A stretch of DNA of 37,108 bases from a virus (Duplodnaviria; Caudoviricetes), in the IMG/VR virus record IMGVR_UViG_3300027732_000061, positions 1-37,108 of that record, one strand, 5' to 3'. Below are positions 9,711 through 36,821 of the stretch, piece after piece; position 1 is the first letter of the stretch; each line of letters opens with the position of its first letter. Position numbers and translations under genes: made by a program. The notes below the pieces were generated by a model. The model did not search any database, was not told where the DNA came from, and saw nothing but the letters and a program-made list of their open reading frames with translations.

Positions 9711-9928
9711 CATTTAGATAATATTAATTTTTTTAATAAATCTTTTATTTCGTCAATATCATTTTTAATCTTTATTACATCTTCTTCTATTTGTTTTGAT
9801 TTTTCAATTTCTTTCATTTTATCTTCCTTTACTTTCAAATATTTTTGATATTCAAAGTCAGAACAGTTAATAATAGCATTGGTATTTTCATCACGAAATA
9901 AAAATTTATTACTTTCTACTGGTATCAT
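9710..9928 (-). CDS. Conserved hypothetical protein (72 aa)
   Basis: IPVE...LFRDENTNAIINC followed by a coiled coil; ATGA overlap with the upstream 2494-aa gene. Confidence 0.75.
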   Translation of the reverse strand: MIPVESNKFLFRDENTNAIINCSDFEYQKYLKVKEDKMKEIEKSKQIEEDVIKIKNDIDEIKDLLKKLILSK

Positions 9929-12900: not shown

Positions 12901-15900
12901 AGTTGAAGAATATGATGAGGAAATTATGTTTTTTGCATCATATGGGTCTAATGTATATGGATTTTCAGAACTAATGTAAGGACCATATTTATGATTTTGG
13001 GTTGCTAATCTAAATCTAATAGATTTAGATCCTAATACTCCGGTAACAGTTTCTCCATTAGTAAAGGTCCCACTAATCATGGAAACTTCTAATAATTTTG
13101 GTGTTATATATTTCGTAACATCAACATTATCAAAAAATGCAGTAAATTGACTAAATGGCAAAAGTCTCTTTGCGATTATCTCAATATTTCTAGATCTCAT
13201 AAATTTTACAATTTCTCTAGAAACTACTCTATCACCAAGATTTACAGAATCAGATTTTGGAGAAACTTTGTACTGTATTCCTTGTCTAGATTGATTTGTT
13301 GTTGTTGTTGTTGTTTGATTTGAAAAATTAATAAAACTATTTTGAAATGTATTAGTTGTAGTTATTGGAATTCCAAAGTTTTGTCCATCATTTGTAAATC
13401 CACCACTTTGAACTGAATTTTGTCCAACTAATGTACTTCCTGTTTGTGATGTAAAAATTGGATCACTTATTGATTGGTCAGTAACTCCAGACCAATCTGT
13501 TTCCCAAGCACCCCAATCTATTGGAGATAATCCAGTATTTGTATCGGCATTTAGTTGTTGCATTGCTGAAGTATATGAACCCTCAACATCTAAAGGTCTT
13601 TTTGTTTTTCTGGTTTCAATCCAGGTATCAGATGATGGATTCAGTTCAATACCACCTATCCAAGTCGAAACATGAAATGGATTTACATTACACTCTGTTG
13701 TTGCATATTCATTTTTAACAAGCACTGCTTCGGTATAGTTCAAACATATAACATCACCAACTCTTTTAATGTCATTAGACCCAAGATCTGTTACGAATCT
13801 TAAATCTGCATTTGGGTTTGAATTTTCTCCAATGCCAATATATGATTCTGACCCCAGTAAAAGATCAATCCCTACAGTATATGGTTGTGGTTTTAATTCT
13901 CCAGCATTTGCATCAACACTAGATTTATATTGAGAATTTGCAATATCACCACCATTGTATGATTTAAAATTATCTACAAAAAAACCACATTTAAATCTAT
14001 CTAATTTTGTAGTTTCGTCTCTAATTGTTAAGTTTTGAGTATCAGACTCAAGTAAAGATAAAGAAGTGTAATATTCTACATTTGTAAGTCTTTTATCGAG
14101 ACTCGAAATGTCTTTCATTCTATATCTTTTATGTGTCGATAAAGATATTTTTACATTTGATGTATCGAATACATATGCTGGCAAATATAAGGTTGCTATC
14201 TCTAATGATGTATCAAGTCCATTTGGTAGTTTTGGAGTAAGTGATGGAATTCCTTTTTTTACAATAAAAACACCATCTTTATCTAAAAATAATCTATCTA
14301 TTCTAGGTAAATAATAATCATAAGATAAATTTATGTTTTTGTCTTTTGCGAAAATATCAGTCGATGAACCATTTGATGATTCAAATATTCTCGATCTAAA
14401 ATCAAATGGCGAAAAACTTCCAGAGTAATTAGATATTCTTGGTCTACAATCCAAAACATCGGACAATCTAATACCATCAACAAATGGTATATCTCGTTCA
14501 TAACGATCTTTGTCGTAAGAATTTACACCAACAAAATCACCAGTATCCGAAGAAGATATAGTATAATGATTATAAATTATTCTAATTCTTTTGGAAGGTT
14601 CAATACCATCAGACTTTCTTATAATTCTTGAAAAATCCAAATATTCAGATCTTTGTCCATTATCGAATATATAATTATTTTTTATATTTTTATCACCAGG
14701 AAACAAAGACGAAACAGATGCTTGAATTTTTGATTCCTGAAAAATGACAGTTTCATTTACGGTGAATAAATTTTCATTTAAATAAACCATATCAACTGTA
14801 TTTGCTCCTACAGATGATACTAATGTTGCTACTGCCCCACTATCATTTCCTACAATTAACTCTCCTTTTACTGCGTTTAAAAGGTTTGATGATATATTTA
14901 AAAGTTGCAAACTTGGTAGGGATGGATCTCCATCTGTCGATGATTCGATAATTGCAATAATATTCGAAACATCTGGAACATTTAAGGAAATTTCTTCATC
15001 TTGAACTCTAAGACCATATGTTTGACTATGAGACAATCCATTAACGGAACTAGTAGATGTTGATTTATTAACAACAAGTGACGAACATCTATTAAAGATT
15101 TTCTTTTTAGTTTTGGTATTTATTTTATTTAAAGTATAAGTAAATCTTGCTTCTCCATTTTTGCTTATATTGAGTAATTTTTTATTTGAAATATCAACTT
15201 TTTGACTTGAAAGTTCCTCTACGGATCCATCTGTAAAAGTTAAATTGTAATCTTCTTCATCAAATGGAACAAAAGTTAAATCTGCAGAAGTTAATAATGA
15301 ATTTAAAGAACATCCACCATTAGAAACGGTAACTGTCGAACTTCTTCTGATTGTAATATCGGACCCGGTTAAATCTAAATTAGCAACATTTGATTTGTTT
15401 ATCTTAGAATACAAAGATACCTCTGAAGTATTTAAAACTTCAAGAGTAACTTTTTTGAGGTCATTAGTTGTAATTTGAGAACTTGGAAGATTTCCCGAAC
15501 AAATTCCAGAAACAGATGGTAATGATACAATTGTTAAACTTCTACCGGAAGTATTAATTGCACTCACCTTATTAAATGTAACAACATTTTCTCCTGTTTT
15601 GCTGTAAGAAACAATATCTCCAATTTTCATTCCAGTATAAAAATTTTGATTTGAAGATGTGATTGTACTAATACCGCCGGAAATGCTAGAAATAGTAAAT
15701 GTTGCTGCAGATGGTGCAATTGAAATATTATAAGAAAGTAATGGGTCACCAGTAAAAGATACTCCATTTCCAACTATTTGATGAACATCTGAAAAATTAT
15801 AATCCCTAATATCAATAATTGTCCTTTCTATATTTTCATTTATTTCTATTGTTTCTTCTTTCACAAAAGAACCAGAAACCTGATACAATTTCATAGTAGA

Positions 15901-17409
15901 TGATTCATTAATCGCATCGACAAGATATCCAGACGCTCCACTATTTTTTCCTTTAATAAATGCTGGTAATGTCTGAGATAAAGAAGAATTTAAGGTTAAA
16001 ATTGTATATGTTTGTATATCATACAATGATATTTCATATTGAGTTGTTGCATTAACGTGTGGACTATTTTTTAATTTAAAATCATAAACTCTAGAAACGC
16101 CAATTTGTTCTCCCGAAGATATACCAGCAGTTACAGTTCTGCCATTGTATAGATTTATATGAGAATCTGTATTAAAACCAACTGGAACAGAACCGGTTAC
16201 GTTATTTAAAATTATTTGTCTACCAAGATTAAATGGAATTGCTTGATTATAATCGTTTTCTGTAGTTCTTGACTTTTCAATATCAATTATTACATTATCA
16301 ATTGTTTCTACTTCATAACCTCTTATATAAGCTTTTCCTGGACTTACTGAAAGGCAAAGTAAATCTTTTGATACTTGATTTCCTTGTTTTGTTTTTTGGC
16401 CTTCGAGATATATTCCATTATTTCCAGTCCTGTCATTTAAGCATTCCTTTGAATCTATATCAAATGGTTTAACATAATAATCACCACTTTCATCATATGT
16501 TCTTCTTGCAAATTCATCACGAATGAAACTATATTCTGTAGTGTCTTTAAATTTTACTGGTATTCCATTTTCTACTCTTATAAGTTCAACAAAATTTTCA
16601 TCATTTATATCTTCAATGCTTTTTTTGATAAATGTTGTAGATATTTTTAATCTATCTGCTCCTGGAGCTGCATAATTTGAAAAACCTTGAGCATTATCAA
16701 ATAGGTCAAGATACTGATCAGATGCTGTAACTATCTCCTCATTAATTAATAAACCTATTCTATAACTTGGTCTATTTGTATATTGATCGAGTATTACTGT
16801 TTGCCTACCTACAGTTACAAAAAAACCATTAACGAAATAGATACCTTCTTCGATTTTAGCAGCGGAACCAACAGCAATAGAATTTGAAATTATTGAAGTT
16901 GCAAATGTCGTCCCACTTCTTATTGTTGATAATGAATAAGAAACATTTTCTAAAGATATTAAATTTTCTCCATCTACAAATGTTTTTGTATTAAAATCGA
17001 CTGTACCAGAACTTTGATATTTAATGTAAAGTGTGTAGTTACCATTATCAGATTCTACATCTGTAATATAATTTTCTACTATTGCTTTAACTCCACTAGT
17101 TTCGCCCTGAATTGTTTTATTAATCAAATTATCAATATAAAGAGAAACGGGAAGACCCAAATGAGATTCATCTATTTGGACACAAGTATATTGTGGATCA
17201 TATACTGCTTGTCCAGGAATAATCATCGCACCTTCTTTAAATAGGTGCCTACCAAATTTTTCAACTTGATTTTGTAATATTGACTGTAATGTTGTTAACT
17301 CTCTAGCTTGTATTGGAGTTCCGGGTTTGAATAAAACTCTTTGATAATTATTTGAATCAGAAAAATCATCAAAATATGGTGATACATTTAAATTGGTGTT
17401 TTGTGGCAT
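9925..17409 (-). CDS. Large virion structural protein, VrlC / DUF4815-like (2494 aa)
   Basis: MPQNTNLNVSPYFDDF, VLFKPGTPIQARELTTLQSILQNQ, APGADR, ARRTYDESGDY, RFKCGFFVDNF, DPLAQSF, FFKSQNGSTW...EDLKFTLYRANF, PKIKDLRVIA; follows gp8 as in cyanomyophages. Confidence 0.85.
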   Translation of the reverse strand: MPQNTNLNVSPYFDDFSDSNNYQRVLFKPGTPIQARELTTLQSILQNQVEKFGRHLFKEGAMIIPGQAVYDPQYTCVQIDESHLGLPVSLYIDNLINKTIQGETSGVKAIVENYITDVESDNGNYTLYIKYQSSGTVDFNTKTFVDGENLISLENVSYSLSTIRSGTTFATSIISNSIAVGSAAKIEEGIYFVNGFFVTVGRQTVILDQYTNRPSYRIGLLINEEIVTASDQYLDLFDNAQGFSNYAAPGADRLKISTTFIKKSIEDINDENFVELIRVENGIPVKFKDTTEYSFIRDEFARRTYDESGDYYVKPFDIDSKECLNDRTGNNGIYLEGQKTKQGNQVSKDLLCLSVSPGKAYIRGYEVETIDNVIIDIEKSRTTENDYNQAIPFNLGRQIILNNVTGSVPVGFNTDSHINLYNGRTVTAGISSGEQIGVSRVYDFKLKNSPHVNATTQYEISLYDIQTYTILTLNSSLSQTLPAFIKGKNSGASGYLVDAINESSTMKLYQVSGSFVKEETIEINENIERTIIDIRDYNFSDVHQIVGNGVSFTGDPLLSYNISIAPSAATFTISSISGGISTITSSNQNFYTGMKIGDIVSYSKTGENVVTFNKVSAINTSGRSLTIVSLPSVSGICSGNLPSSQITTNDLKKVTLEVLNTSEVSLYSKINKSNVANLDLTGSDITIRRSSTVTVSNGGCSLNSLLTSADLTFVPFDEEDYNLTFTDGSVEELSSQKVDISNKKLLNISKNGEARFTYTLNKINTKTKKKIFNRCSSLVVNKSTSTSSVNGLSHSQTYGLRVQDEEISLNVPDVSNIIAIIESSTDGDPSLPSLQLLNISSNLLNAVKGELIVGNDSGAVATLVSSVGANTVDMVYLNENLFTVNETVIFQESKIQASVSSLFPGDKNIKNNYIFDNGQRSEYLDFSRIIRKSDGIEPSKRIRIIYNHYTISSSDTGDFVGVNSYDKDRYERDIPFVDGIRLSDVLDCRPRISNYSGSFSPFDFRSRIFESSNGSSTDIFAKDKNINLSYDYYLPRIDRLFLDKDGVFIVKKGIPSLTPKLPNGLDTSLEIATLYLPAYVFDTSNVKISLSTHKRYRMKDISSLDKRLTNVEYYTSLSLLESDTQNLTIRDETTKLDRFKCGFFVDNFKSYNGGDIANSQYKSSVDANAGELKPQPYTVGIDLLLGSESYIGIGENSNPNADLRFVTDLGSNDIKRVGDVICLNYTEAVLVKNEYATTECNVNPFHVSTWIGGIELNPSSDTWIETRKTKRPLDVEGSYTSAMQQLNADTNTGLSPIDWGAWETDWSGVTDQSISDPIFTSQTGSTLVGQNSVQSGGFTNDGQNFGIPITTTNTFQNSFINFSNQTTTTTTNQSRQGIQYKVSPKSDSVNLGDRVVSREIVKFMRSRNIEIIAKRLLPFSQFTAFFDNVDVTKYITPKLLEVSMISGTFTNGETVTGVLGSKSIRFRLATQNHKYGPYISSENPYTLDPYDAKNIISSSYSSTTKILNVDTASLELQSESSFYGCIDIGMKLIGKSSGAEAKVSNLRLICDNLGVFIGSFFIPDSISPSAPQFTTGTKTFVLSTSKTNESFSGSTSQSKAESNFSSSGTLDNVEDVTLSIRNAEISRTAKTDVPRSSESTDIRLVSNISNNFTTTQNTVYVDPLAQSFEVTDNNGVFVTKCDIFFKNKSTSDLPVTLQIRTMRDGSPTQVILPFGEVVLDAKDVSVSDTGLTPTTFTFPSPVYLGRTEFALVLLTASTEYVVWISAMAGDGRKSIVVSTIGTNDEKTVSEQPLLGSFFKSQNGSTWDSSQYEDLKFTLYRANFVTTSASVRFYNPNLDVGNDQVVSLRSNPIQMYSKSSFIGIGTSISSADQSNLVSGVKITQTDNANFSSKLLKVLGGISTGTPGTLTITNPGTGYTNTSKLYSNTDLVSLSGFGRGAKVNLTINGGVAVAATVSVGGTGYAKGDILTISPENTDNLGKNLILSIPNSSGIITSVNSLIVNNIQGQLISNDPTKTLKYGSNNVISNSNITSVSEITDGLRFKVNHNNHGMYSSQNKVILSGIESDLTPLSLSASYSKTLSGNNPISFTSSVGILTTFENIPVGAGNTGYILIKDEIVGYTSADVATNTITGIVRGTIPESYDANQLVFKYEMNGVSLKRINKVHTISNDYNIDLDEYSIKLDQTTEGLNRSTANNATHPELFFNETKSGGTYEAFSPVVGSIRGPKASQNIQFNIVRPIVGTLLPQSTEISAKIRTFSGTSADGNEISFVDQGFEDISLISDNILTSPRIIASEINEKAKLLNYPGAKSFTLEMVLSTKDTKVSPMIDLDRVNITTTMARLNKPISNYAKDPRVNSSIRDPHAAIYISKIIKLKQSADSIKVLFDAYRDASSDIRVLYRIFRDDTLSNQQIFELFPGYKNLDNNGKVINPKDNDGLSDTFVLPSLGFNDFGNYEFTANDVPLFNGLQIKILMSGTNQALYPKIKDLRVIATKS

Positions 17410-19009: not shown

Positions 19010-22000
19010 TTATTTACTTTTAAACAGACCTCTAGTTCTTGTAACTTCCGGAGCAGTCGAAAGTCCAATTAAACCATTATTAGTGTTTAGTATAAATTCT
19101 TTTGGAGAACCAAGTGATCTATTTTCATAATCATATATCTTACCCCAACTATAATTTCCATAATAACCATTTGTTGTTATTCCGGGATTTATTGTAAAAT
19201 CAATTCCAACCGGAATCGCTGGTGTTGGATTGGGAAGAAATCTACAAGTGACAGTTACAATTCCTACCACAGAGGAATTGATTGGTTTTTCTACTACTTC
19301 TGCATAATAAACACCATCGATAAATGAAGTTGCAGTACCAACAACAACATTATCAGTAGTTATACAAGTTAAGGCATGTCCACACTGAATATTGCTATTA
19401 TATATCACAAAATAATCTCCTACCGAAATTCCACTTGATTGTATGCCATAACTATTAAGAGCAGAATATCCTATTCCCAATTGAGTATTATCATAAGATT
19501 CTGTTTTTAATTTAAATTTTATTCGTGGTATAGTATTAATTCCGGCAATTATTGTTAAAGAAGTATCAACACCTACTATAACACCAAAATCACCTTCTGC
19601 CTCGATTGATTTGATTTCTTCTATTTTTGTTTTTTCTGATTGAATTAATACTTTAGGTGGATCTGATTGATTATATCCAAAACCAGGATTTGTAATTGTG
19701 ATAGATGTTACGGTTCCAGATGTTGCATTCGATGTTGCAGATGCAAAATTATAACTAGGAATAGAATAAATCGAAGTGGCCCCAAGTCCAACAGAAATAT
19801 ATCTATCTTCAACAATTGAATAATTAATATCTTTTAATGCATTTGATTGATTTGTAGATTTTTGAGTCCAATTTTGAAGATCGAATGAATAATATAATAT
19901 CCCATTTGAATTTAATAATGTATATAAGTTGTAATATGAATTGTAATGTATATTTGTAAAATTACCAAAAATATTGGGAATAATTTGCACCCAACTAGTT
20001 CCATTAGTAGAAGTTCTAATTTCAGAATTATTACCAACAGTTATAAATTGAGATCCAGTCCAAATAACTTTATTTAAATCGCCATTATCTATATTCACCC
20101 AAGATGTTCCATCAATACTTCTTACTCCACCAGTATTACCAACTACAACAATAGAACCAATACCTACTGCAATCGATCTCAAATTGCTAGTTGTATTTGA
20201 TGATACTAATTTAAATGAAGTACTGCCAACTCCAACTGCATCAAAAATCGAACCACCAGCACCAACACAAATCCATTTATCGTAATCTGATGAATATATA
20301 ATGTCCGCAAGTGCAGCAACAGAAACACTTTCTAGTGGTTCTTTGCCTCCAAGAATATTGCTAAATTCGAATTTTTTAATTTCTGACCAAGATGATATTG
20401 TTGTACCAAATCCAACAGATCTTACAATTTTTCCTTGTTCTCCAACAGCAATATAGTAATTAGTTGCTCCCAATCCAACAGAATTGAAATTAATTGTTCC
20501 GGCATATCCAATATTTGACGTTGTATTGAATGATTTTCCATCTATTGAAGTTACCACAATTCCACTTTGCCCAACTGCAACTATAGGATTTCCAATAACC
20601 ACTGATAGTAATGAAGAAGTCGTCGATAAACCGCTCGTAGGTAACCAATTAAAAATTGGTTCTTTAATTTGTGATTGTGGATGAGAAAACGAAACTGTCG
20701 GAGAATTTATTGTATATCCAATACCTCCAGTAGAAATTGCAACATAAGAAATTGTACCTGCAACTGATACTACTGCTGTCCCAAGTCCTGATAATGTTTC
20801 TTTATTATCAATTATTAATATATTATCTTCTGACCCTTGAATTGGATCAACATCATTAAATAGAGGATATGCATTATTTACATATATTGACGTGTCTGTA
20901 GTATTTAAGTTTTTAATAATTCTAGTTGTAGGTCTAATTGTCGGAATTAAATTTGGTCTTGCTTTAGAAACTAAAGAACCAAGAATAACTCTATCTTCTG
21001 TTTGTTTTGTCCATTTTAATGGTCTAATTTTATCAGAATTTGTATTGATGCCAATACTATCATAATTATAAGTATCAAGTTGATCTGATGCTACAATCTT
21101 TTTAACTACTCTTTCGAATTGTTCTCTATCCAAATTGTCATTAATATTTTCACCAATTTGAACAATGTCCCCCTCCTTAATTGTTTTTAGTGGAGTAACA
21201 GTTTCTACGTCTAAAGACGAACCTCTGTAAAATATAACAGAACATAATGAATTTGGTTTTGGTGCTTCACTAAAAACTATCCTAGATCCAAAGAAGGTAT
21301 AAGCTTCACCAGGAACTTGAAGTATATCATTCAAATATATAAAAATATTATTTTGCAATACAATATCAGATCCAAATTCTTTTCTCAAATCAATTATTTC
21401 AGTAGTTCCACCATTAGTTTGTGTTAATGTAAATTTTTTGCGAAATCCATTAAAATATTGAGAAAAATCATCAAAATAAATAAATTGTCCAGGATAAAAC
21501 CCACTAAATTTATCTGTTAAAGTTTCTGTCACTGTAAGTTTAAACTCTACAAATTCTGCACCAATCGTTGGATTTGTAGTTAATCCGACTACTTTAAGAA
21601 TATCCCCAACTTTATACCCAACTCCAGGATTATCTAAATTAAAACCAATAATATTTGAACCAGATCCAACTTGAACTGAAACTTTTGCATTAGTTCCAAC
21701 TCCAGAAGAACCTCCAGTGTAAGCAACGCCAAGATTGCTGTATCCAAGAGGTAGATCAATATTTACATATACAGGGGAAGATGGCATATACCCACTTCCA
21801 CCTCCAACAATTGAAAGTGAAGATAAACTACCACCAACACCAACAGTGGCCGTTATAGTAGCACCAGAACCAACATCAGAGGCAATACTGATACTTGGAG
21901 GAGTTCTATAAGCACTACCACCACCTTTTATAGTAATTGAGGTAATTGTCCCTGCAGATGAAACTGATGCTGTTGCTGCTGCTCCAATCAATGGTTGATA

Positions 22001-25000
22001 ACCAAATCCAGTCGTAATTGCAACATTTACAATTTTTCCAGCATTTGGGACACCAGTTAAAAACTTAATAGTATTATTTCCGGGAGTATCAATTGAATAA
22101 TCTACTTCTGGCCTTTGGAAAACATTGTTTATAAGTATAATTGGATTATTGTTAATATCTGTAGAACTATTTGTGTCTGTATACAATCCAACAACACCGT
22201 TTCCATTTGATTTTAAATTAAATTGTGTTGCTGCAATTCCAGTAAAATCAGCAGAAATATCATCTAAAATTAAATTTTTATCATTTGGACTTGAAGAATC
22301 AAATGCCCTAGAGAATGCTCTACCGGAGAAGAAAGATGATACTTTAAACTGAGGATCTGTTGATGCTATTGCTGGCCCATATGGTGGAGTAGAAAAATAT
22401 ATCACATCCTTTACAATATTAAAATCACCAGTATGAACAGTAACCGCAGAACCTATCGTATGCCCAGCAGCAACTGTTCCCATAAATGAACGAGCAACAT
22501 CTATTTTATTCGTAGATCCAATACCAACAGAAATGATTTTTAAAAATTCATTGTTAATTTTTAAAATGTCTGATCCTGATATAGAATTAATACCAGAAGA
22601 AATATATATTGCGGTTGATCCAATACCGATTGATGTGGAAAGACCTATTGTGATATTTTTTTGATGAACTGCACTTTGGATTATATTATCTATAGAAATG
22701 ATTACATTTTCATTTTGATTTTTAAAACTAAATGATTGAGTCCCAGTACCAAGAGATGTCAAATCAAAAGGAGATGAAATTGCTGTAGGTACTCCGCAAA
22801 GTTGAAAATTATTTACGTCAATTTTACGAACAAAAACATTTGATGGTAAAGTTGTTCCGGGTGCATGAAATGTCGCAGCAATTCCTATAGAGGTTCCAGC
22901 TCCAGAATTATAGATTATTTCTTGTCCACTTTGAAACCCATGATTTGAAATAATAAATTTATTATTTGCCAAATCAACAAAAGAAGTAGAAGAACTAACA
23001 AACTCATTATAAAATAATGAATTTCCTAAACTTTTAAGTTTAAATGAAGACAATCCAACAACTTCTCCACCAATTGTACTAGTAATTCCTGTAAATTGTG
23101 AACTAATATCATCAATTGATGAAACTTTATTGGTTTTATTTAATATAAAATTCATCAATTCAACTCCTTCTGGAAAATATATTCTTTCCACAGATTCGTC
23201 ATCTAACACATCTTCTTCATATACCATTGAAAAATTGTGTTTTGTGTGCAAAGAATTAAAACTATCCATATTCACAAGCAATGTTGTTTCTGATGATGCA
23301 ATAGAAACTTTCATATTTGTAGATTTGGCAATTCCAATATTGACTGGACCAATATTGGGCATTGTAATTATATCTAAATCAGAAAACTCTTTAAATCCAG
23401 ACGGATGTATAATTGATTTTACAGATTCTTTCCAAGTCGAATATGGAATTTCACTTTTGATTGAATATGAAAATTTTTGATAATAATTATTATCTGATAT
23501 TCTTTGTTGATAATCATTCAAAATACCATTTTTATCATCAAAATCATTAATTTTGTCTCTAGAAACTCCTAGAGATGCAGAAAGGTCAAATGTAGATACA
23601 AATTTTACTACTCCATTTAATTTTGATTTTTCTCCATAAAGTTTATCGCCAACATTTAATACTCCTTTGGAATTTATCAATCTTAATTGATTTATATCAT
23701 TATCCCAACCATCTTCCATTACTTGTGCCGAAAAATTTGTAGATGATACTTTTTCTCCAGAAAAATATTGGGAATCATCAATTATATTCATTTCAAAAAT
23801 GGGCATATCTTTTTTGTTGACAACATGACCAAAAGTAAAATCAGAATTATATAAACCAAAATCCGCATTAATTGGTTGCAGCCCATTCATATTATAGTTT
23901 ATAGTCCTAGTGGTTGTGGTTATTCCTGTCACTGTGAAAAAGTTATACCCATAATCTTTCGAATTAAAAGTATTTTTGGTTTTAGTTGCATCAGTCAATC
24001 TACATTTTTCAATAAAAATACTATCACCAATTGCAAATGGAAATTTTGTTATTGTTGACCCATATCCAATTGCGATTGGTTCGAATAAAACCGGATCATT
24101 TACTAAATTTATTGTTCCATCTCCAGAATTATTCACATTTATATCATCAATTTCATATCCATTTGAATTATTATACGGAACAATGTTAAATGGATTTTTT
24201 AAATTAAAAACATTTTTTGTTATTTCTACATTAATTACAGATCCACCTTGAATTTTGGATGTCAGTTCGATTTGATCATTTCCAATAACTTTTAATTTTG
24301 GTGGAGTATTGTAATTTTTTCCTCCTGTTAAAATACCAATAGAATCTACTCTAGATATTTCTTTAATAATACAAACAGCAGGAACACTCAACTGTGGCAA
24401 TATAGTAGGATCTGTAGGGTAGTCAAATCCATTTTTAATTCTATCAAGTGATAAGATTTCTCCAATTTCATCTGAAATTGGTGTTAATGATGCAGATTTT
24501 CCAGAAGAAGTTTTAACAAAATTTATAGATGGAAGAATTGGATAAGATATTCCTTTTGAATTAATTTTGATTTTTGATATTGGACCACTTGCATTTTTAG
24601 AATCTGTATCATAAAAGACTGAGGAAATTCCTGTCGTTTGTGTATATTCTACATATTCTGGTTTTTGTTTTAAATTAAATTTAAAAATATTGGAACTGAC
24701 ACCAATAATAGAGTGTTCGCTTGATAGGTTACTTGATCGAATATCGATTCGATTAAAACCAAAAACTTCTTTATCAATAGATAATTGATTTTTTTCTGGA
24801 TCTGAAGATACTGGAGTAAAATTATAATAAAATGTTTTTGGAATGAATCTCTCCTTAGTTTGCAAACTTACTGAGGTATCAGTCCTTCCAATTGCTAATG
24901 TATTTTCTTGTTTTTTATCAATTTCAAATTGTTTTTTAAAATCTTGATCTGTATAAAAATTTAATATAAATTTATCATTATTGTTATTGTTTATAGACAA

Positions 25001-28000
25001 ATTTGATACATCAAATTCTATTTTATTTCCTTTTGAAAATGATAGTGGCGGATTTATAAGAGCAATATTTTGAGTACCAATTCCAGCATTAGAAAATGAT
25101 ATTCCCAATCCAATAGTCACGTCATAAGAATATTTACAAAGTTGTATTTTATCTGGGTGCTCTTTTAACACATAATAAACTGATTCATTTTCTAAACCAC
25201 CAATAGCAGTAGTTCCAGAATAATAAACAATTTTATCTCCATTTTTTAATATATTAAGTCCAATATCAATTGTTGATGTAGAACCGGTAGAAACTTTTGC
25301 TGTAGAAAATCCTATAAGACCGGTTGTAATTTTTCTATTTTTTTTATCAAATCTAAAAGATACATTTTCTGTCCTTGATGGTATAATTGTAAATTTAATT
25401 TTATCCCCACCAAGTAAATTGTGGGGTTCTGAAGTAGACACAATTCCAGAATAATTTTCAACTCTTGCAGTTACTGTTTTATATGTTGTTTTGAATGAAT
25501 TTAAATCGCTAACATTTGCATTGGATATAAAATACAAAGAGTTTAATGTACTTCCAATTCCAATTGAAGTAGTAAAACCCAATGTAGATATTCCTAGATA
25601 ATTATTTCCCAAATTTACAGCATATATTGTTTGGTTTTTAGTTAAACTGAATGATAAAGAAGGATTGCTATCATATACACTTACTCCTATACCAGAACCA
25701 ACAGGACAATCATATGTTAATTGTTGTCCAGTATAAAAATTATGATTCGGAATATAAATCACTCGTGATGGAACAAATCTATTCACTATATTACTTATTC
25801 CAATACCAACAACTGAATAATTAGTTCCAGTAGTTCCAAATCCGACACTATTTTTTGGGTTAAAATATATTTCTCGATTTTCTGGTAAAAATGAAGAAAT
25901 TGGGTTAACTTCGGTAAATTCAAACTTTTTAGGAAGTAATCTCACACTTTCGATTCCTGCAGTATGAATTCCACCAGAAGAAGATCGGTTGACTAATAAT
26001 TGTGATGTTTCTGGTATAATATTCGTAATAATTAATATTTCTGTTCCAATTTCAATTGAATCATTAACTTCAAAACCAGAAATATCCGTAACATTTATAT
26101 TTGTGGAAACTCCAGTAACACCAATGTTTTGTAAACTAGATGTCAATCCAACTACTTTTTGATTTACAAATATAGTTTTTGTACCTTCAAGTTGAGATAA
26201 TGAAAATGCAGATATTCCTGAAATGATTATTTTATCATTAGATACTAAATTATGTACAGTTGAAGCAATTCCTACAATTTTATTGCCTCTGGTTGCAAAT
26301 ACAACATCATTGAAAGTAGATACTCCAACAATTAAATTTGATATTGTTTTTCCAAACACTCTATCAATTTCCGCACCTGCACCTACTCCTTCTTTTTCGT
26401 TTTTAAAAATTATAGCATCTTTTGCACGATAATTTTCACCAGAAGAATCAATTGATATAGATGTAATACCAGATTTTTTGATTTGTTTTACTATAAAATC
26501 CTGTTTTAACTCTGGAGCATTTTTAGTTAAAGCATCATAACCAGAGTTTTCAGAATCCAAAAAGTAATTTGAGGTATTTCTTATTAAATTAAGATTCTTG
26601 AAGTCTAAATTTTGAGTAAAAGTAGGATCAAAATTTTCAATAACTGGAATATCTTTAAAATAATTTCCAATTACATATGGATATTTTGGATTTGTTTCCT
26701 TTGTATCTCCATTAGATATAATCTCAAAAGTCGCAAAATAGGCATATGTTCCATATGGATATTCTGGTGTTGTGCAAAATCTTCCATTATATTCATCCAA
26801 ATCTCCAGAAGAATCAAACTTATAATCGTTTACAAAATAACCATTATCAAAAGAATTTGGTCTTTCTTTACCATTAGGTTCAGATTTTTTTTTGTAACTA
26901 GAATTAATTAATTTAATAGTATTATCTGTTATACTAGTTCTTCCATATGGTCCATAAATCGGATTTCCATCATAAGCCCATCCAATAATTGGACTATGTT
27001 GGGGTGGTGTTATTTCGGTATTATTATCATTATTAATATTATCACCGATATTTTTTCTTAATGCTTTTGGTAGATAAAAATTAATTACTTTTAGCCCAAG
27101 AGATTGGTCGATATTTGGAAATGTTATTGTTTCGTCATTTCCACTAAATTTATTTTTTTTAACTTGATTGATTTTCCACTCAAATACATTTGCAATAAAT
27201 TGTAAATCTTTTCCTCTTCTGACTACTTCTATTCTTGTGTTTGATTTTGTATATCCAACACCATCATCAATAACCAAAAATGAAGTAATTTTTCCGTCTG
27301 TAATAACTGGTTTAATGTCAGCATATTTTCCTTCCCCATAAATTATTACTTCAAACCCATTATCATATCCTTTTCCCGAAAAAATAATTTGAATATCTGT
27401 AATAGATCCATTTATAATTACCGGTTTTAGCAAAGCAGAAGTAATTGGTTTTAAATTAACATTTGGCCTTCTGTGAAAATTAATAATCTCAGAAGAACCA
27501 TAAGAAACCCCACCATTTTCAATATAAACACTCTCGGCACTTCCGAGCACTATTGGAGTCAGTATTGGGGATACGATTGATGTTGAACCTATTCCCGATA
27601 AAGTCTCTATTTTAATACTAATTGGAGGATATGCAAATGTGTGCGTACCAACTCCTAAAGAATTAAATTTAGTGTATTTTTTATTAATATAATTTAAATT
27701 AGTTGATGTAGTTCCAATACCAGCATCAGATAGTTTAAATTTATCTTTATCAATAATTGTAATATAATATTCTGTAGTAGTGGATAATCCAGATATTGAA
27801 GTACCAGTATGAGAATATATAACAAAATCACCATTTTTAAATCCATGCATTTTGGCAAAAATGTAATCATCAAATGTACTAATCCCAGAAATTTGATAAT
27901 CCAAAGACGGATATGAAACAGAGGATACTTTAACTAATCTATTTGAATATCCAGAACCTGGATTTTTTACATAAATTTTATTAATAATATTTTTAATATT

Positions 28001-30676
28001 AAGAGTCCTAAATTCATGAAATCCAGAACTTATACCAGTAATATTAATAGTGGCAATTCCTACTAAAACGTCTGATATATTTTTATGTAATTTGATTTGT
28101 TTTGGATTTATAATATTTACGAAATATTTTGAGTTCTCTATTAGTCCAGGAACAACTGTATTTCCATTTGAATGATATACTATTTCTTCATAATTAACAA
28201 AATTGTGATTACTTATAAATGTTATTGTATCTGTAGAGGTATCAATCGATTCTGAATCTGATTTAAATATTGCAGTAATATTTGTTTTAACTAAATTGGG
28301 TTCTAATACTGCACCAGAACCATTACCACCCATTAAAGTTAATATTGGTTTTTTGACATATCCAATTCCTGGAGAATTTATTTGTACTTCTTTTAATGAT
28401 CCAGAAAGAATTAAATTTGCTTTACATTCAGATCCAATGTTTTTTATGTTTAAACCAATACCTACAGAATCACTTATAATTAATTCGGGAGGATTTATTA
28501 CATCATAATTTTTTCCTGGATTTGTTATTTGGATCGAATCTACTTTTCCATAATAAATATTCTCATCAAATAGAGTAGGTGAATATAACTCTACGCCATT
28601 AATAAATAATCCAAGATTTCTATTGAATGTGGTTCTGCTAGTTTCATTATCAAAATAATTAAGATTGTCGGTTAAATTAAATTTTCTTAATATTTTTTGA
28701 TCTTTAATAGTTTTATTTTCATAACCAAGTTTAAAGATAAAACCATTTGTGGTTGCAATACCAACATTAATATATTCTTCAGCAAATAAGTTATTATCAC
28801 TATAGGATAATGATATATTCTCGTCATTGATTTTTTTTACAAAATAAATTCCAGTTTCAATTCCTACAGAAGTTTTTGGATCATAATAAATTTTATCTCC
28901 AGATGATAAATTATGATTAATTATTTTCAAAATTGTAGTTGACCCTGTTCCTATAGGAACAACTTTTTTTGTATCTGTAGAACTAATTTCATAATTTGGA
29001 AAACCAGAAGTTGTTACATATAAATATTTTCCTTCTTTGTCGATATAAGTATTTTGAATTGCTGAATTTATACTTGATATACCAATAAAATTTAAAAAAT
29101 TAGTTTTATTAATTGTTTTTTGAATTCTAATTTTATTAACATCCGAAATATCGAATCCACTTTCACTTGCTTCTAAACCAATTATAGTAGAATTTGTAAT
29201 ACCCGTAATTTTTGCAGGTATATTTTTTGGAATTGTGGTTGCAATATTAATAATAACCTTTTCATCTTTGTAAAATTTAATATTATCTTTTAATGTTATG
29301 GTATAACTACCAGCAGCATTAGATGTTATTCCACTTATATTATGATATGTTGGTATATTATAAATCCAACTATCAAAATTTGTATTTCCTGATAAGTTTT
29401 TTCCAAAAGAACTGAGTGATATTTTATCTCCAATTTTTAATCCAGAAGAATTTTTAGTATCAATTTTATCAATTACACTAATAATTCTAAATTCATTTAA
29501 AGATGGTGTATCTGATTGGTTGTCATATGCATATGCTAATTTGCTTTCGTAAATAAAGTCTCCAAAATTTAAAGTTTGGTCAATACCAGTAACATTTAAA
29601 AATTGAGTACTCGTTTTATCTGTATATGATAAATTTAATTGTGTTAAATCTGTTTTTTGTGCAATAATTGTTCCTGACTGTGCAAATCCAACTGTAGAAT
29701 CGACAGTAATTGTATTATTTGATGCAAGAACAGTTTCAACTACTTTAGTTGATCCTGTAATTTCAAAGTTTCCAGTAAAAGATGTAGAATCTAAAGATAC
29801 TTCATAAAAATCTTTATCCCGTATTGGCCTATACTCAACATTATAGATAGCAGCAGTAACTGTACCAATTCCACTTATAAATTGATTTAATGTTTCGCCC
29901 TTTAATGAAGTAGCATTTTTCCCAGAAATTTTTTCAACTAAAATATTTTTTGTTACAAAATAATTACTGTCAGATGGACTCAACATATATTCTTGAGGAT
30001 TTATTGTTTCTATTTCTGATCCATATAATATCGAAAAAAGAATTTTAAAAGATTGTGATGTTCCTTTTGAAGAATAAAAATCCTTTGCTCTTGATAAAAT
30101 ATTTCCCAAAGAAATATTAGGAGAAAGATTTCTTTCTTCAAAACCAGGCAAAAACTGATATTTAAATTTTTTAAATATTTCAAAGAAGAATATAAAATTT
30201 AAATTTTGTAAAGGTGTATCTTTTTTATGTTCAGATGCTTCAGTAATTGAAAAATTTAAAAGTCCTGGATTATTATCTTTTTCTAAACTATCGATACCAC
30301 TAAATCCACGAATACACCCAGTAAATTTATTTGTTGTTATTCCTGTATAAGTAATAATTTCATTATCAATTTTAATTAATCCATATTTACTTGGATATCC
30401 AATTGTATGAGATACGGAAATAGTATCATCAAAAGATAAAACATCATCTGTTAATATCGAAGGAACATTTAGATCTATTAATGTTTCACTATTAAAATTT
30501 TGTATTTTTTTATATTTTTGAATATTAGATGATAAGTCTACTATTCCTGTTTGATGTTCCTGTGATGTATAATATTGATCTAAAAATTCCTGAAAAAGTG
30601 GTGATTCCTCATTCAAAAATTCAGGAATTTGTGAATCTAAAATGTGATTGATTTTTATTCTTTTGATTTCCGTCAT
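19010..30676 (-). CDS. gp7: Giant baseplate wedge protein (cyanomyophage gp7-like, 3888 aa)
   Basis: Lies between gp6 and gp8; ILDSQIPEF...FLDQYY, KDFYSSKGT..SFKILF, HSPIIGWAYDGNPIYGPYG...GDLDEYNGRFC.TPEYP.GTYAYF (YHYH-like segment), DNNYYQKFSYSIKS...HPSGFKEF; many GxGY repeat domains. Confidence 0.8.
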   Translation of the reverse strand: MTEIKRIKINHILDSQIPEFLNEESPLFQEFLDQYYTSQEHQTGIVDLSSNIQKYKKIQNFNSETLIDLNVPSILTDDVLSFDDTISVSHTIGYPSKYGLIKIDNEIITYTGITTNKFTGCIRGFSGIDSLEKDNNPGLLNFSITEASEHKKDTPLQNLNFIFFFEIFKKFKYQFLPGFEERNLSPNISLGNILSRAKDFYSSKGTSQSFKILFSILYGSEIETINPQEYMLSPSDSNYFVTKNILVEKISGKNATSLKGETLNQFISGIGTVTAAIYNVEYRPIRDKDFYEVSLDSTSFTGNFEITGSTKVVETVLASNNTITVDSTVGFAQSGTIIAQKTDLTQLNLSYTDKTSTQFLNVTGIDQTLNFGDFIYESKLAYAYDNQSDTPSLNEFRIISVIDKIDTKNSSGLKIGDKISLSSFGKNLSGNTNFDSWIYNIPTYHNISGITSNAAGSYTITLKDNIKFYKDEKVIINIATTIPKNIPAKITGITNSTIIGLEASESGFDISDVNKIRIQKTINKTNFLNFIGISSINSAIQNTYIDKEGKYLYVTTSGFPNYEISSTDTKKVVPIGTGSTTILKIINHNLSSGDKIYYDPKTSVGIETGIYFVKKINDENISLSYSDNNLFAEEYINVGIATTNGFIFKLGYENKTIKDQKILRKFNLTDNLNYFDNETSRTTFNRNLGLFINGVELYSPTLFDENIYYGKVDSIQITNPGKNYDVINPPELIISDSVGIGLNIKNIGSECKANLILSGSLKEVQINSPGIGYVKKPILTLMGGNGSGAVLEPNLVKTNITAIFKSDSESIDTSTDTITFISNHNFVNYEEIVYHSNGNTVVPGLIENSKYFVNIINPKQIKLHKNISDVLVGIATINITGISSGFHEFRTLNIKNIINKIYVKNPGSGYSNRLVKVSSVSYPSLDYQISGISTFDDYIFAKMHGFKNGDFVIYSHTGTSISGLSTTTEYYITIIDKDKFKLSDAGIGTTSTNLNYINKKYTKFNSLGVGTHTFAYPPISIKIETLSGIGSTSIVSPILTPIVLGSAESVYIENGGVSYGSSEIINFHRRPNVNLKPITSALLKPVIINGSITDIQIIFSGKGYDNGFEVIIYGEGKYADIKPVITDGKITSFLVIDDGVGYTKSNTRIEVVRRGKDLQFIANVFEWKINQVKKNKFSGNDETITFPNIDQSLGLKVINFYLPKALRKNIGDNINNDNNTEITPPQHSPIIGWAYDGNPIYGPYGRTSITDNTIKLINSSYKKKSEPNGKERPNSFDNGYFVNDYKFDSSGDLDEYNGRFCTTPEYPYGTYAYFATFEIISNGDTKETNPKYPYVIGNYFKDIPVIENFDPTFTQNLDFKNLNLIRNTSNYFLDSENSGYDALTKNAPELKQDFIVKQIKKSGITSISIDSSGENYRAKDAIIFKNEKEGVGAGAEIDRVFGKTISNLIVGVSTFNDVVFATRGNKIVGIASTVHNLVSNDKIIISGISAFSLSQLEGTKTIFVNQKVVGLTSSLQNIGVTGVSTNINVTDISGFEVNDSIEIGTEILIITNIIPETSQLLVNRSSSGGIHTAGIESVRLLPKKFEFTEVNPISSFLPENREIYFNPKNSVGFGTTGTNYSVVGIGISNIVNRFVPSRVIYIPNHNFYTGQQLTYDCPVGSGIGVSVYDSNPSLSFSLTKNQTIYAVNLGNNYLGISTLGFTTSIGIGSTLNSLYFISNANVSDLNSFKTTYKTVTARVENYSGIVSTSEPHNLLGGDKIKFTIIPSRTENVSFRFDKKNRKITTGLIGFSTAKVSTGSTSTIDIGLNILKNGDKIVYYSGTTAIGGLENESVYYVLKEHPDKIQLCKYSYDVTIGLGISFSNAGIGTQNIALINPPLSFSKGNKIEFDVSNLSINNNNNDKFILNFYTDQDFKKQFEIDKKQENTLAIGRTDTSVSLQTKERFIPKTFYYNFTPVSSDPEKNQLSIDKEVFGFNRIDIRSSNLSSEHSIIGVSSNIFKFNLKQKPEYVEYTQTTGISSVFYDTDSKNASGPISKIKINSKGISYPILPSINFVKTSSGKSASLTPISDEIGEILSLDRIKNGFDYPTDPTILPQLSVPAVCIIKEISRVDSIGILTGGKNYNTPPKLKVIGNDQIELTSKIQGGSVINVEITKNVFNLKNPFNIVPYNNSNGYEIDDINVNNSGDGTINLVNDPVLFEPIAIGYGSTITKFPFAIGDSIFIEKCRLTDATKTKNTFNSKDYGYNFFTVTGITTTTRTINYNMNGLQPINADFGLYNSDFTFGHVVNKKDMPIFEMNIIDDSQYFSGEKVSSTNFSAQVMEDGWDNDINQLRLINSKGVLNVGDKLYGEKSKLNGVVKFVSTFDLSASLGVSRDKINDFDDKNGILNDYQQRISDNNYYQKFSYSIKSEIPYSTWKESVKSIIHPSGFKEFSDLDIITMPNIGPVNIGIAKSTNMKVSIASSETTLLVNMDSFNSLHTKHNFSMVYEEDVLDDESVERIYFPEGVELMNFILNKTNKVSSIDDISSQFTGITSTIGGEVVGLSSFKLKSLGNSLFYNEFVSSSTSFVDLANNKFIISNHGFQSGQEIIYNSGAGTSIGIAATFHAPGTTLPSNVFVRKIDVNNFQLCGVPTAISSPFDLTSLGTGTQSFSFKNQNENVIISIDNIIQSAVHQKNITIGLSTSIGIGSTAIYISSGINSISGSDILKINNEFLKIISVGIGSTNKIDVARSFMGTVAAGHTIGSAVTVHTGDFNIVKDVIYFSTPPYGPAIASTDPQFKVSSFFSGRAFSRAFDSSSPNDKNLILDDISADFTGIAATQFNLKSNGNGVVGLYTDTNSSTDINNNPIILINNVFQRPEVDYSIDTPGNNTIKFLTGVPNAGKIVNVAITTGFGYQPLIGAAATASVSSAGTITSITIKGGGSAYRTPPSISIASDVGSGATITATVGVGGSLSSLSIVGGGSGYMPSSPVYVNIDLPLGYSNLGVAYTGGSSGVGTNAKVSVQVGSGSNIIGFNLDNPGVGYKVGDILKVVGLTTNPTIGAEFVEFKLTVTETLTDKFSGFYPGQFIYFDDFSQYFNGFRKKFTLTQTNGGTTEIIDLRKEFGSDIVLQNNIFIYLNDILQVPGEAYTFFGSRIVFSEAPKPNSLCSVIFYRGSSLDVETVTPLKTIKEGDIVQIGENINDNLDREQFERVVKKIVASDQLDTYNYDSIGINTNSDKIRPLKWTKQTEDRVILGSLVSKARPNLIPTIRPTTRIIKNLNTTDTSIYVNNAYPLFNDVDPIQGSEDNILIIDNKETLSGLGTAVVSVAGTISYVAISTGGIGYTINSPTVSFSHPQSQIKEPIFNWLPTSGLSTTSSLLSVVIGNPIVAVGQSGIVVTSIDGKSFNTTSNIGYAGTINFNSVGLGATNYYIAVGEQGKIVRSVGFGTTISSWSEIKKFEFSNILGGKEPLESVSVAALADIIYSSDYDKWICVGAGGSIFDAVGVGSTSFKLVSSNTTSNLRSIAVGIGSIVVVGNTGGVRSIDGTSWVNIDNGDLNKVIWTGSQFITVGNNSEIRTSTNGTSWVQIIPNIFGNFTNIHYNSYYNLYTLLNSNGILYYSFDLQNWTQKSTNQSNALKDINYSIVEDRYISVGLGATSIYSIPSYNFASATSNATSGTVTSITITNPGFGYNQSDPPKVLIQSEKTKIEEIKSIEAEGDFGVIVGVDTSLTIIAGINTIPRIKFKLKTESYDNTQLGIGYSALNSYGIQSSGISVGDYFVIYNSNIQCGHALTCITTDNVVVGTATSFIDGVYYAEVVEKPINSSVVGIVTVTCRFLPNPTPAIPVGIDFTINPGITTNGYYGNYSWGKIYDYENRSLGSPKEFILNTNNGLIGLSTAPEVTRTRGLFKSK

Positions 30677-34604: not shown

Positions 34605-35357
34605 TCAAATCACTCTCATCTTTTCATGACCTACACGAATCTGTGGATCACACCAGATTTCAAATCCTGCTTCTTTTGCATCTAAACAGAAAGAAACATC
34701 TTCTCCACACATATCTTGAACTTCTCCAGATTCAAATACTTGCATCTTAGGAGCAAACCAAGGGTATTCGAGATTTTCAAATACTCCTTTTTTAATCAGT
34801 ACCCATCCAAATCCCGTATAATCAACTGTAAATGATTTGCGCCTCTTGCTCATTGTATCTCCAGTTTCATGATTCATGACTCCTCCATTGCCCCTAAAAT
34901 CGTCCTCCTCTAACCAATGAGCAACTGAGGTAGTATGACCATCTTCAGTCATATACCAACCTGCTGCGATGTCTTTATCCATTGCTACAAGACGATAAAA
35001 CTTTTCAGTATCAAATACAATATCACTATCAATCCATAATTGATAATCATAATTCAATTTTCCATCCCATGGAACTTGCTTTGGTCCTCGTAGTACATTT
35101 GCACCAAGGCATTTGCAACGTGCAAAGTTTACCATGGAAGAATAATCCTGTGATATTTGAATGCTTGCACCATTCTGCACAAGATCAAAACATAACTGAA
35201 CAAAATTTTTCAAATATGTATATGATACTCCACGACCTGGAAGACAAAATACAATAGACTTTCCTTTAATTGATTCTTTAGCTGCCTGTAAATTAAATTC
35301 ACCATCTGATGATGTACTTAATGGTGCCTTTGCTTTAACTGTAAATCCTTTTGCCAT
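34605..35357 (-). CDS. GT-A fold glycosyltransferase-like protein (250 aa)
   Basis: DxD motif in YDYQLWIDSDIVF, VNFARC, VDYTGFGWVLIKKGVFE, MCGEDVSFC, IWCDP...VGHEK are GT2-like; ATG 35357 preferred to the track's TTG 35375. Confidence 0.7.
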   Translation of the reverse strand: MAKGFTVKAKAPLSTSSDGEFNLQAAKESIKGKSIVFCLPGRGVSYTYLKNFVQLCFDLVQNGASIQISQDYSSMVNFARCKCLGANVLRGPKQVPWDGKLNYDYQLWIDSDIVFDTEKFYRLVAMDKDIAAGWYMTEDGHTTSVAHWLEEDDFRGNGGVMNHETGDTMSKRRKSFTVDYTGFGWVLIKKGVFENLEYPWFAPKMQVFESGEVQDMCGEDVSFCLDAKEAGFEIWCDPQIRVGHEKMRVI

Positions 35358-35382
35358 AAAAATTAAAATCCCCAACGTTTAT

Positions 35383-35708: not shown

Positions 35709-36080
35709 CTTTTTATCTTGATACTTAAAAAATATATATACACAAATATTTTTATGGTGCCTTCTTTTTTTGTATATTTTTTTCCTCGGAATTTTTTTTT
35801 ATAAGATGGTAAGTATCTTTGAAATCTAAAATGGACTCTTATATACTCTCTCGGTTTGGAACCTTTGTAGGTTAGGGTAGTTTGCGGTTTTCACTTTAGG
35901 CATCGGTTTATAATAACAAACAAACAACGTTGAATATAACTGTCAAAACAGTGCTGTATAATACTTTACACGAACTACAAAATGTTGATTATTATTTTAA
36001 ATTGATTGATTTTAATATAAACTATACCCGGGGTATGTGAAATAACTGTACCGGGGGTACTAGAATTATGAGAACTGAGA

Positions 36081-36396
36081 GTTTTCCACAGGACGATAGA
36101 AGTTTTCCACAGGTAAACGAAGAGTTTTCCACAGGTATTCCACAATCTTATGAGGTTTTCCACAGGTTTGTGTAGTTTTCCACAGGTAAACAAAGAGTTT
36201 TCCACAGGTAAACAAAGAGTTTTCCACAGGATGATAGAAGTTTTCCACAGGTTTATGAGAGTTTTCCACAGGGTAAATCTTATAAACCCTTGCAAATACT
36301 ACAACTACTTCTAAACCTGTGGAAAACTATTACAACGAACAGTTCTTATACTCTATACTACCACGAACAACCTGTGGAAAACTACTTTTCCACAGG
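36081..36396. repeat. Array of cyanobacterial-type DnaA boxes (TTTTCCACA; extended GTTTTCCACAGG)
   Basis: Forward copies at 36082, 36103, 36125, 36156, 36176, 36198, 36220, 36241, 36262 and 36386; reverse copies at 36318 and 36373; variant TATTCCACA at 36136. The repeat is certain; DnaA binding is inferred from the consensus. Confidence 0.85.
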
Positions 36397-36526
36397 ACGA
36401 AGTAGTATCATACTCACAGATGCACGAAGTTATTATCTCAGTCCACGAAGTCATTATAACACACGAAGTCGGGGGTCGTCAAGTGTCTCAGAATGTGTCG
36501 GAAATCTTATAATCCCTTGGAAACAC

Positions 36527-36555
36527 TTGACAAATAAACTGTGCTGTGTTATAAT
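36527..36555 (+). promoter_or_regulatory. Perfect sigma70 promoter TTGACA-N17-TATAAT with extended -10, antisense to all genes
   Basis: TTGACA 36527-36532, TG 36547-36548, TATAAT 36550-36555. Confidence 0.8.
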
Positions 36556-36692
36556 TAACAGGCTTAGAAGACAATAAGAACTTATAATACTCTATAATAA
36601 CAGTCATTATACTATAATAACACAATATAACACATATGTTTTAATTAACATTAATTAATGATTTCTAATTACATCAATAGCAGACACACATA

Positions 36693-36821
36693 TTACATTT
36701 CTTGTACTTTAGCAATCGCATCACAGATAAATGTAGTCAGTAATATACACTGACCAGAGAGATCACATACTACATAAACAGTTTGCTTTGTGTGAATGTC
36801 TTGAGTGAAACGGATAGTCAT
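36693..36821 (-). CDS. Hypothetical protein (42 aa)
   Basis: MTIRFTQDIHTKQTVYVVCDLSGQCILLTTFICDAIAKVQEM; short, no obvious RBS. Confidence 0.5.
   Translation of the reverse strand: MTIRFTQDIHTKQTVYVVCDLSGQCILLTTFICDAIAKVQEM

Follow-up and report, generated by a model that had tools for sequence, protein, structure and literature searches.

A control region of a freshwater T4-like cyanophage carries, within 313 bp (36082-36394), twelve perfect copies of the cyanobacterial DnaA box TTTTCCACA and one variant box, an array that probably docks the DnaA protein of the host and that may act, in the reading that we tentatively prefer from its sequence, as an optional platform assisting a predicted origin of phage replication that is primed from a promoter. 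The element is real, consistently placed and optional among relatives, and it is a variant of known DnaA-box modules that lies outside the oriC family.

The stretch of DNA analyzed, hereafter the window, is 37,108 nt long, and all of its long genes, including gp25 and speD, lie on the minus strand; judging from the translations, we also assign genes for terminase, neck and baseplate proteins. Two giant structural ORFs (2494 and 3888 aa) occupy positions 9925-17409 and 19010-30676 in a baseplate block. The control region adjoins a core cyanophage gene, glycosyltransferase-like, which was used as a synteny anchor (the anchor gene) and which found matches in 106 phage records, 96 of them named Synechococcus, Prochlorococcus or Cyanophage, with identities of up to 85% to Synechococcus phages. 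As the closest relatives by this protein infect cyanobacteria, the proposal of the initial annotation that the DNA belongs to a T4-like phage pointing to cyanobacteria is upheld. Metagenome runs containing the stretch were of freshwater or lake origin wherever labelled (20 rows, 14 studies). The window is that of a freshwater T4-like cyanophage, and we infer that its host is a freshwater picocyanobacterium. The anchor gene and the elements of the control region are the following:

34605..35375, minus strand: anchor gene, glycosyltransferase-like, core cyanophage (phrog_1574)
35867..35875, plus strand: conserved cyanophage motif GTAGGTTAG at the left end of the control region, with blastn matches in many cyanophage isolates
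36082..36270, plus strand: direct run of nine perfect TTTTCCACA boxes and one TATTCCACA, in 20-22-bp units with the extended core AG-box-GG
36271..36317, plus strand: conserved 47-bp gap from the last direct box to the converging box (56 bp start to start)
36318..36326, minus strand: reverse DnaA box converging on the run, invariant in nine distinct relatives
36371..36396, no strand assigned: inverted box pair 13 bp apart (36373-36381 reverse, 36386-36394 forward)
36453..36482, minus strand: predicted sigma70-like promoter with extended -10, 11/12 match, aimed into the array
36502..36527, plus strand: the 26-bp motif of the gap again (88%), directly next to the -35 hexamer
36527..36555, plus strand: predicted perfect sigma70-like promoter with extended -10, 12/12 consensus match
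36556..36700, plus strand: AT-rich repeat tract downstream of the 36527 promoter, candidate unwinding element

Forward copies of TTTTCCACA start at 36082, 36103, 36125, 36156, 36176, 36198, 36220, 36241, 36262 and 36386, reverse copies start at 36318 and 36373, and the single variant TATTCCACA occupies 36136-36144. This recount agrees exactly with the ten forward and two reverse perfect boxes and one variant in about 315 bp reported initially, and the start-to-start spacings given then (21, 22, 11, 20, 20, 22, 22, 21 and 21 bp) were reproduced. The count against expectation that had been proposed as a check revealed no exact TTTTCCACA in the window outside the array, with 0.8-1.2 copies expected per whole window and about 0.01 per 315 bp (Markov orders 1-4). 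Phasing of the ten direct sites was strong (resultant length 0.91 at 10.5 bp and 0.94 at 10.6 bp), so that the boxes do fall on about one helix face, as had been claimed, but this is partly inherent in a 20-22-bp repeat unit; because the run grows by duplication of such units, the phase within a single array carries little weight on its own. The array also proved non-coding, as first described: the ORFs that cross it are repeat-derived, the longest (106 aa) is without PHROG match, and deletions of 22 and 43 bp in lake variants would break reading frames across it. An Rfam search over the region gave no family at the gathering score and none below E 0.3, and the interpretation of the array as coding DNA or structured RNA was dropped because no PHROG or Rfam family matched.

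Contig L052, possibly from the same sample as the window, has the same box spacings between flanking proteins that are 100% identical. Contigs from other runs join each flank to the array, one spanning 35893-36203 with zero differences (X2 record 4) and one spanning 36239-36812 (X5 record 21), and lake runs contain unit deletions of 21, 22 and 43 bp. As contigs from other runs bridge both flanks and unit deletions occur, the array is neither a chimera nor an assembly error, and L052 together with the bridging contigs rules out a chimeric join with host DNA. RNA runs yielded contigs with only 5-7% of the words, which are uninformative on strand or level.

Among relatives, one to nine perfect direct boxes precede the 56-bp step. 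The 47-bp gap, which includes the 26-bp motif (36275-36300) and a run of degenerate NAN triplets (36294-36308), has the same length in 15 distinct homologous gaps, and a second group of phages has a step of 78-79 bp instead of 56, about two helical turns longer. In close relatives the converging box is usually followed after about 55-59 bp by an inverted pair with the 13-bp offset. This pair is predicted to fold into an 11-bp stem containing a whole box (DNA fold -11.4 kcal/mol, z -5.5), and on the minus strand the hairpin is followed by a T-rich tail with a terminator-like score (RNA fold z -3.4). Box pairs 12-14 bp apart were found in 22 of 44 phage loci versus none of 48 host origin loci. 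The inverted pair at 13 bp could simply be a back-to-back arrangement of two extended boxes. A short spacer motif chosen post hoc, which we take to resemble an IHF site, was present in 16 of 55 host spacers versus 0.7 in shuffles, and in 8 of 14 listed phage gaps.

To the right of the array, the predicted 36527 promoter is antisense to the genes and directed away from the boxes into the AT-rich tract (AT 0.72-0.79 over 36501-36700, compared to 0.56-0.63 over the array). Of 20 related loci, 19 have a predicted plus-strand promoter close to the array that matches at least 10/12 positions, with a 12/12 match in 12 of these, and in three of those related loci the promoter is upstream of the boxes. 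An antisense promoter was found in five of eight isolate stretches, and a promoter in range in 9 of 13 loci with boxes versus 8 of 38 without (protein-picked loci, 1.5 kb upstream). The minus-strand promoter at 36453..36482 is present at that site only in the closest relatives. Other recurrent elements were observed in this region. The conserved stretch around GTAGGTTAG (35760-35900) has long T runs, matches many cyanophage isolates and belongs to no Rfam family; it is possibly a leader or small RNA. ACGAA occurs eight times in 35970-36467, always on the plus strand and five times as ACGAAG (0.08 expected), and is frequent in relatives L002, L020 and L050. Two similar TACC-GGGG-TA palindromic elements lie directly left of the array (36024-36061) and are retained in relatives. 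A second recurrent motif, TCTTATAAG-like, has seven matches in 35799-36587, and in S-SKS1 (L523) five 22-bp repeats with such a motif lie ahead of three boxes.

A scan of viral sequences for three boxes at a 19-23-bp pitch gave 73 loci, 33 of them with the anchor gene within 3 kb; such scans select for that spacing and were excluded from the estimates of pitch and frequency. In a set free of that selection, the best 80 of at least 598 loci, chosen by anchor protein alone, the DNA upstream of the anchor gene (278,935 nt) held 69 boxes and the downstream DNA (551,129 nt) held 8; at least three boxes within 500 bp occurred in 10 of the 43 loci of this set having 2 kb of upstream DNA. Thirteen of 23 named cyanophage records carry at least two boxes within 300 bp upstream of gp25 or the anchor gene (6/14 plus 7/9, the latter set also accepting TTATCCACA; six of the 23 were chosen by DNA similarity to the region, and the protein-chosen remainder is 8/17), and the other ten have no cluster. 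The search for the same cluster at the syntenic locus of relatives, which the initial annotation had suggested, thus located it upstream of the glycosyltransferase/gp25 block, yet as an optional element. The part in host takeover that the same annotation proposed is conjectural, for an array that 10 of 23 cyanophage records do without. In isolates, the distance from cluster to gp25 downstream is 1.6-8.8 kb, and the clusters are situated where a cluster of small ORFs ends. Smaller versions occur in the cultured phages Syn9, S-SM1, Syn1, S-RIM2 and DSL-LC03 and none in P-SSM2, P-SSM4 or S-CRM01, so that natural controls exist. A close same-direction pair is absent from three of four near-complete viral records. 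Across nine related sequences, which are not independent, none of the 27 columns in the three right-hand boxes varies versus 47 of 97 other columns. One record of a T4-like phage of a Methylophilales host had no cluster, and a search of plasmids for similar DNA found none.

Two further viral records deserve mention in their own right. A 284-kb record (G338; L018, L216) has two anchor genes and two differing arrays, one of them identical to that of G339, and is probably a mis-assembly. In Microvirus mar31 (L078:3162-3319), a small single-stranded DNA phage, eleven intergenic copies of TTTTCCACA follow each other at an exact 11-bp pitch with a twelfth besides, possibly a DnaA-based priming site.

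The identification of the motif as the cyanobacterial DnaA box is sustained by host loci and by published work, the available text of which describes cooperative binding by domain IV of Cyanothece DnaA (PMC4674748). In a genome scan (11 of 64 parts), 76 of 121 loci were cyanobacterial by title. A flanking G at -1/+1 was found in 71%/81% of 181 phage boxes and 59%/81% of 137 host origin boxes, compared to 25%/41% of 12 scattered boxes, and same-direction spacings peak at 11-12 and 21-22 bp in phage (n = 37) and host (n = 110) alike. Phage and host origin boxes have these flanks and spacings in common despite unrelated spacers. In S-SKS1, TTTTCCACA and TTATCCACA are intermixed at a 21-bp pitch, and host origins mix them likewise. 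DnaA domain IV was absent from all five phage records searched, and 34 of 41 picocyanobacterial genomes, a group recognized indirectly through a CsoS2 match, had a DnaA over the cut-off. From these sequence comparisons we consider it very probable that DnaA of the host binds the array cooperatively.

The initial annotation had called the array a mimic of oriC, a description that does not stand, as the host-type unwinding module (TAG trios, 4-nt spacer and tandem box pair) is missing from the window and from 44 of 44 phage clusters. At least two TAG among the four triplets beside a box were found in 28 of 30 dnaN-anchored picocyanobacterial regions versus none of 44 phage clusters (boxes with up to two mismatches), and beside the boxes of the window, within 16 bp, the count was one. 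The dnaN-anchored set was used because host loci L336-L365 had been chosen by the trio pattern, which made them circular for this count. Neither a tandem box pair next to trios nor a dnaN neighborhood was found in the window, where the flanking genes are phage genes, and none of 69 viral matches to the host trio pattern had a gene of this locus within 2 kb. As the melting signal of the host origin is missing, the array is probably a docking helper for DnaA and not a full copy of a host origin.

Perfect sites are more numerous in the array than in the host origin, since the 500 nt upstream of dnaN hold zero to two perfect boxes in 30 picocyanobacterial genomes (three regions being only 170 nt long); two origins picked by pattern have five to six. 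Owing to the degeneracy of picocyanobacterial boxes, the strict host pattern was found in only 2 of 151 genomes of this group, and a second pattern matched 85 of 151 class-wide. For S. elongatus DnaA, the available text of PMC8287927 states that unwinding requires boxes plus trios, and gives a loose trio rule of at least three NAN within 16 bp of a box on the correct strand. Under this rule, which is often satisfied by chance, the window has five NAN triplets (36294-36308) on the correct strand 9 bp from box 36318; its TAC triplets were rejected as ordinary DnaA trios by the strict TAG test. Runs of at least four NAN occur in 13 of the 15 homologous gaps versus 26% of shuffles and 42 of 356 other phage boxes, their middle A is retained in 67-100% of the 15, and none was seen in six gaps of the 78-79-bp group (at most three triplets). 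Like cyanobacterial oriC as available in PMC8287927 and PMC4674748, the array combines TTTTCCACA boxes, G flanks, an 11/21-bp pitch and a long step of about 54-55 bp; unlike it, the array is without TAG trios or tandem pair, lies away from dnaN, has many more perfect boxes and includes the 13-bp inverted pair.

Several other box loci came to light in these searches. Picocyanobacterial origins L435-L464 combine strict trios with mostly degenerate boxes, many of them with a short conserved motif past the tandem boxes. Three viral contigs of 95-162 kb (L366, L390 and L421) have the full trio and tandem-box module with ten TTATCCACA boxes and could be phage-plasmids or host fragments. Many cyanobacterial chromosomes (L085, L086, L097, L123 and others) carry a lone triple at a 20-22-bp pitch away from dnaN, adjoining guaA, a cation-efflux gene or an nfeD-like gene, with at least two TAG in none of 34; these are candidate elements of the datA/DBC type.

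T4-like cyanophages are thought to replicate through their own T4-type machinery, and DnaA boxes alongside another initiation mechanism are familiar from plasmids. We tentatively favor a role of the array as a helper because the cassette to its right fits the plan of T4 oriF/oriG by sequence and because of the box hairpin. Host DnaA would occupy the phased run cooperatively, and host RNA polymerase would fire from the 36527 promoter into the AT-rich tract, leaving an R-loop as at T4 oriF/oriG. DnaA on the array, together with the box hairpin once single-stranded, might then help to maintain the opened region or to load a helicase in the early phase of infection, prior to takeover by the phage replisome (gp59/gp41), and slippage of the 21-22-bp unit could tune the amount of bound DnaA. 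The fixed geometry of 56 or 78-79 bp suggests a structured complex.

The available text of PMC3016281 describes T4 oriF/oriG as a promoter plus an AT-rich unwinding element that holds an R-loop, and oriE as having repeats at even spacing. The cyanophage region is like oriF/oriG in its strong predicted promoter (by consensus match) firing into an AT-rich tract and in the phage's own gp59-like loader, and unlike them in that the promoter is of the host sigma70 type with a full -35 hexamer instead of the MotA type of T4. It is like oriE in the evenly spaced direct repeats nearby, with the difference that the repeats here are host DnaA boxes, a word ("DnaA") that does not occur in the text of PMC3016281 available. 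In E. coli, a hairpin whose stem contains a box is where DnaA loads DnaB onto single-stranded DNA (PMC6127211, available part). The predicted hairpin of the array, with a complete DnaA box as its stem, is like this A-site of the ABC primosome, and differs from it in being embedded in double-stranded phage DNA adjoining a nine-box run.

Against the helper role, the array is optional among relatives, the order of boxes and promoter differs between phages, with the boxes upstream in some and downstream in the rest, and three of the eight isolate stretches are without an antisense promoter by the rule used. The gp59-like loader was found in five of five phages at E < 0.001 (two over the cut-off), and as the phages encode it, help from the host is not obviously needed. 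Location alone does not prove a link to an origin, because the control region is among the few non-coding places. The skew analysis that had been suggested initially gave no support either, as fourfold sites of DSL-LC03 or S-RIM2 showed no sign change at the cluster. Cumulative G-C climbs throughout in three genomes, and cumulative A-T has a peak at about 50-60 kb in Syn9 and S-RIM2 that is absent from DSL-LC03; these peaks are uninformative on the origin because structural genes begin there.

The twelve perfect boxes, set against the zero to two upstream of dnaN in the 30 picocyanobacterial genomes, would also suit an array that titrates or inactivates host DnaA and stalls host initiation as phage genomes multiply, which we regard as possible though unlikely. 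The absence of host-type trios, the expansion and contraction of the copy number and the likeness to the solitary box triples without trios that cyanobacterial chromosomes carry at a distance from dnaN (two genomes have such a triple plus a separate origin) favor this explanation, and there is precedent in the B. subtilis DnaA-box clusters outside the origin (DBCs) that restrain initiation (PMC3245932, available text) and in the impaired initiation caused by additional datA copies in E. coli (PMC5742627, available text). Like both, the array consists of same-direction boxes outside oriC without trios; unlike both, it lies on a lytic phage in a fixed link to a promoter and AT-rich tract. datA, moreover, requires an IHF site, for which the array offers at most the candidate spacer motif. 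Titration fits poorly because many relatives have only two to three boxes, too few for the purpose, a single incoming genome brings just 12 sites, and neither the fixed 56-bp geometry nor the hairpin would be needed. Another explanation draws on the position of isolate clusters at the end of the small-ORF cluster and on the control of neighboring genes by some B. subtilis clusters (PMC3245932, available text). DnaA sitting on the DNA that separates the early-gene cluster from the baseplate block might be a roadblock or regulator, with the hairpin as terminator, coupling expression to the replication state of the host. Back-to-back predicted promoters at 36482 (minus) and 36527 (plus), the former reading through the terminator-like hairpin and the array, agree with such a gate, which we nevertheless judge improbable, as the minus-strand promoter is limited to close relatives and RNA contigs of relatives, possibly DNA, span the array in two runs.

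Decidedly less credible is a true DnaA-opened origin, in which box 36318 and the NAN run would form a basal unwinding module and DnaA alone would melt the 47-bp gap. The loose rule of PMC8287927 (available text) is satisfied by the five triplets at 9 bp, NAN runs with a conserved middle A recur in the homologous gaps, and the next box is 55 bp away compared to 53-54 bp in host origins. However, the 15 gaps are homologous and in effect one event, the triplets are TAC/CAC/AAC, unlike the host TAG, and the 78-79-bp group is without such runs, for which reasons this origin keeps only a small probability; a tandem box is also lacking and the gap is just 66% AT. That the repeats are iterons for a phage protein, containing a DnaA box by chance, is very unlikely. 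The TCTTATAAG-like motif is about 11-fold enriched in control regions (25 of 43 loci, against a mostly coding background), the five 22-bp repeats of S-SKS1 have the same spacer and no box, and T4 oriE has repeats of this kind (PMC3016281, available text); the enriched motif suggests that a phage protein may bind alongside. Yet the invariant part is exactly the 9-mer, variation follows only the degeneracy of DnaA itself, flanks and pitch agree with host sites, and the T4-like phage of a non-cyanobacterial host (one record) is without a cluster. Least credible of all, at the edge of dismissal, is a neutral minisatellite or an assembly artefact: the direct run clearly grows through slippage, but the boxes are invariant among diverged spacers, the clusters keep one location across many genera, and independent runs bridge the flanks.

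A bolder combination of these ideas, to which we give a low probability, would have the first replication rounds of the phage use the host initiator, with DnaA polymerizing on the phased run, melting the 47-bp gap at the degenerate trios or capturing the box hairpin exposed by the R-loop, and loading the helicase of the host; at the same time the expandable run would deprive host oriC, with its largely imperfect boxes, of DnaA. A literature search that covered mainly open-access papers, judged by the entries listed, found no report of a DnaA-box cluster of this kind in phages, and the word "DnaA" is absent from two cyanophage reviews (PMC2984593 and PMC3037559), the former of which mentions, in its available text, only one predicted single origin, in Syn9. 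The conserved but optional host DnaA sites and the promoter/AT-rich cassette make up a concrete 700-bp origin candidate, and with the array one can ask directly whether a lytic T4-like phage exploits or disables the host initiator while contributing no protein itself. If the bolder combination were true, the element would mark the unmapped origin of T4-like cyanophages and would be a DNA-only device that at once steals DnaA and puts it to use.
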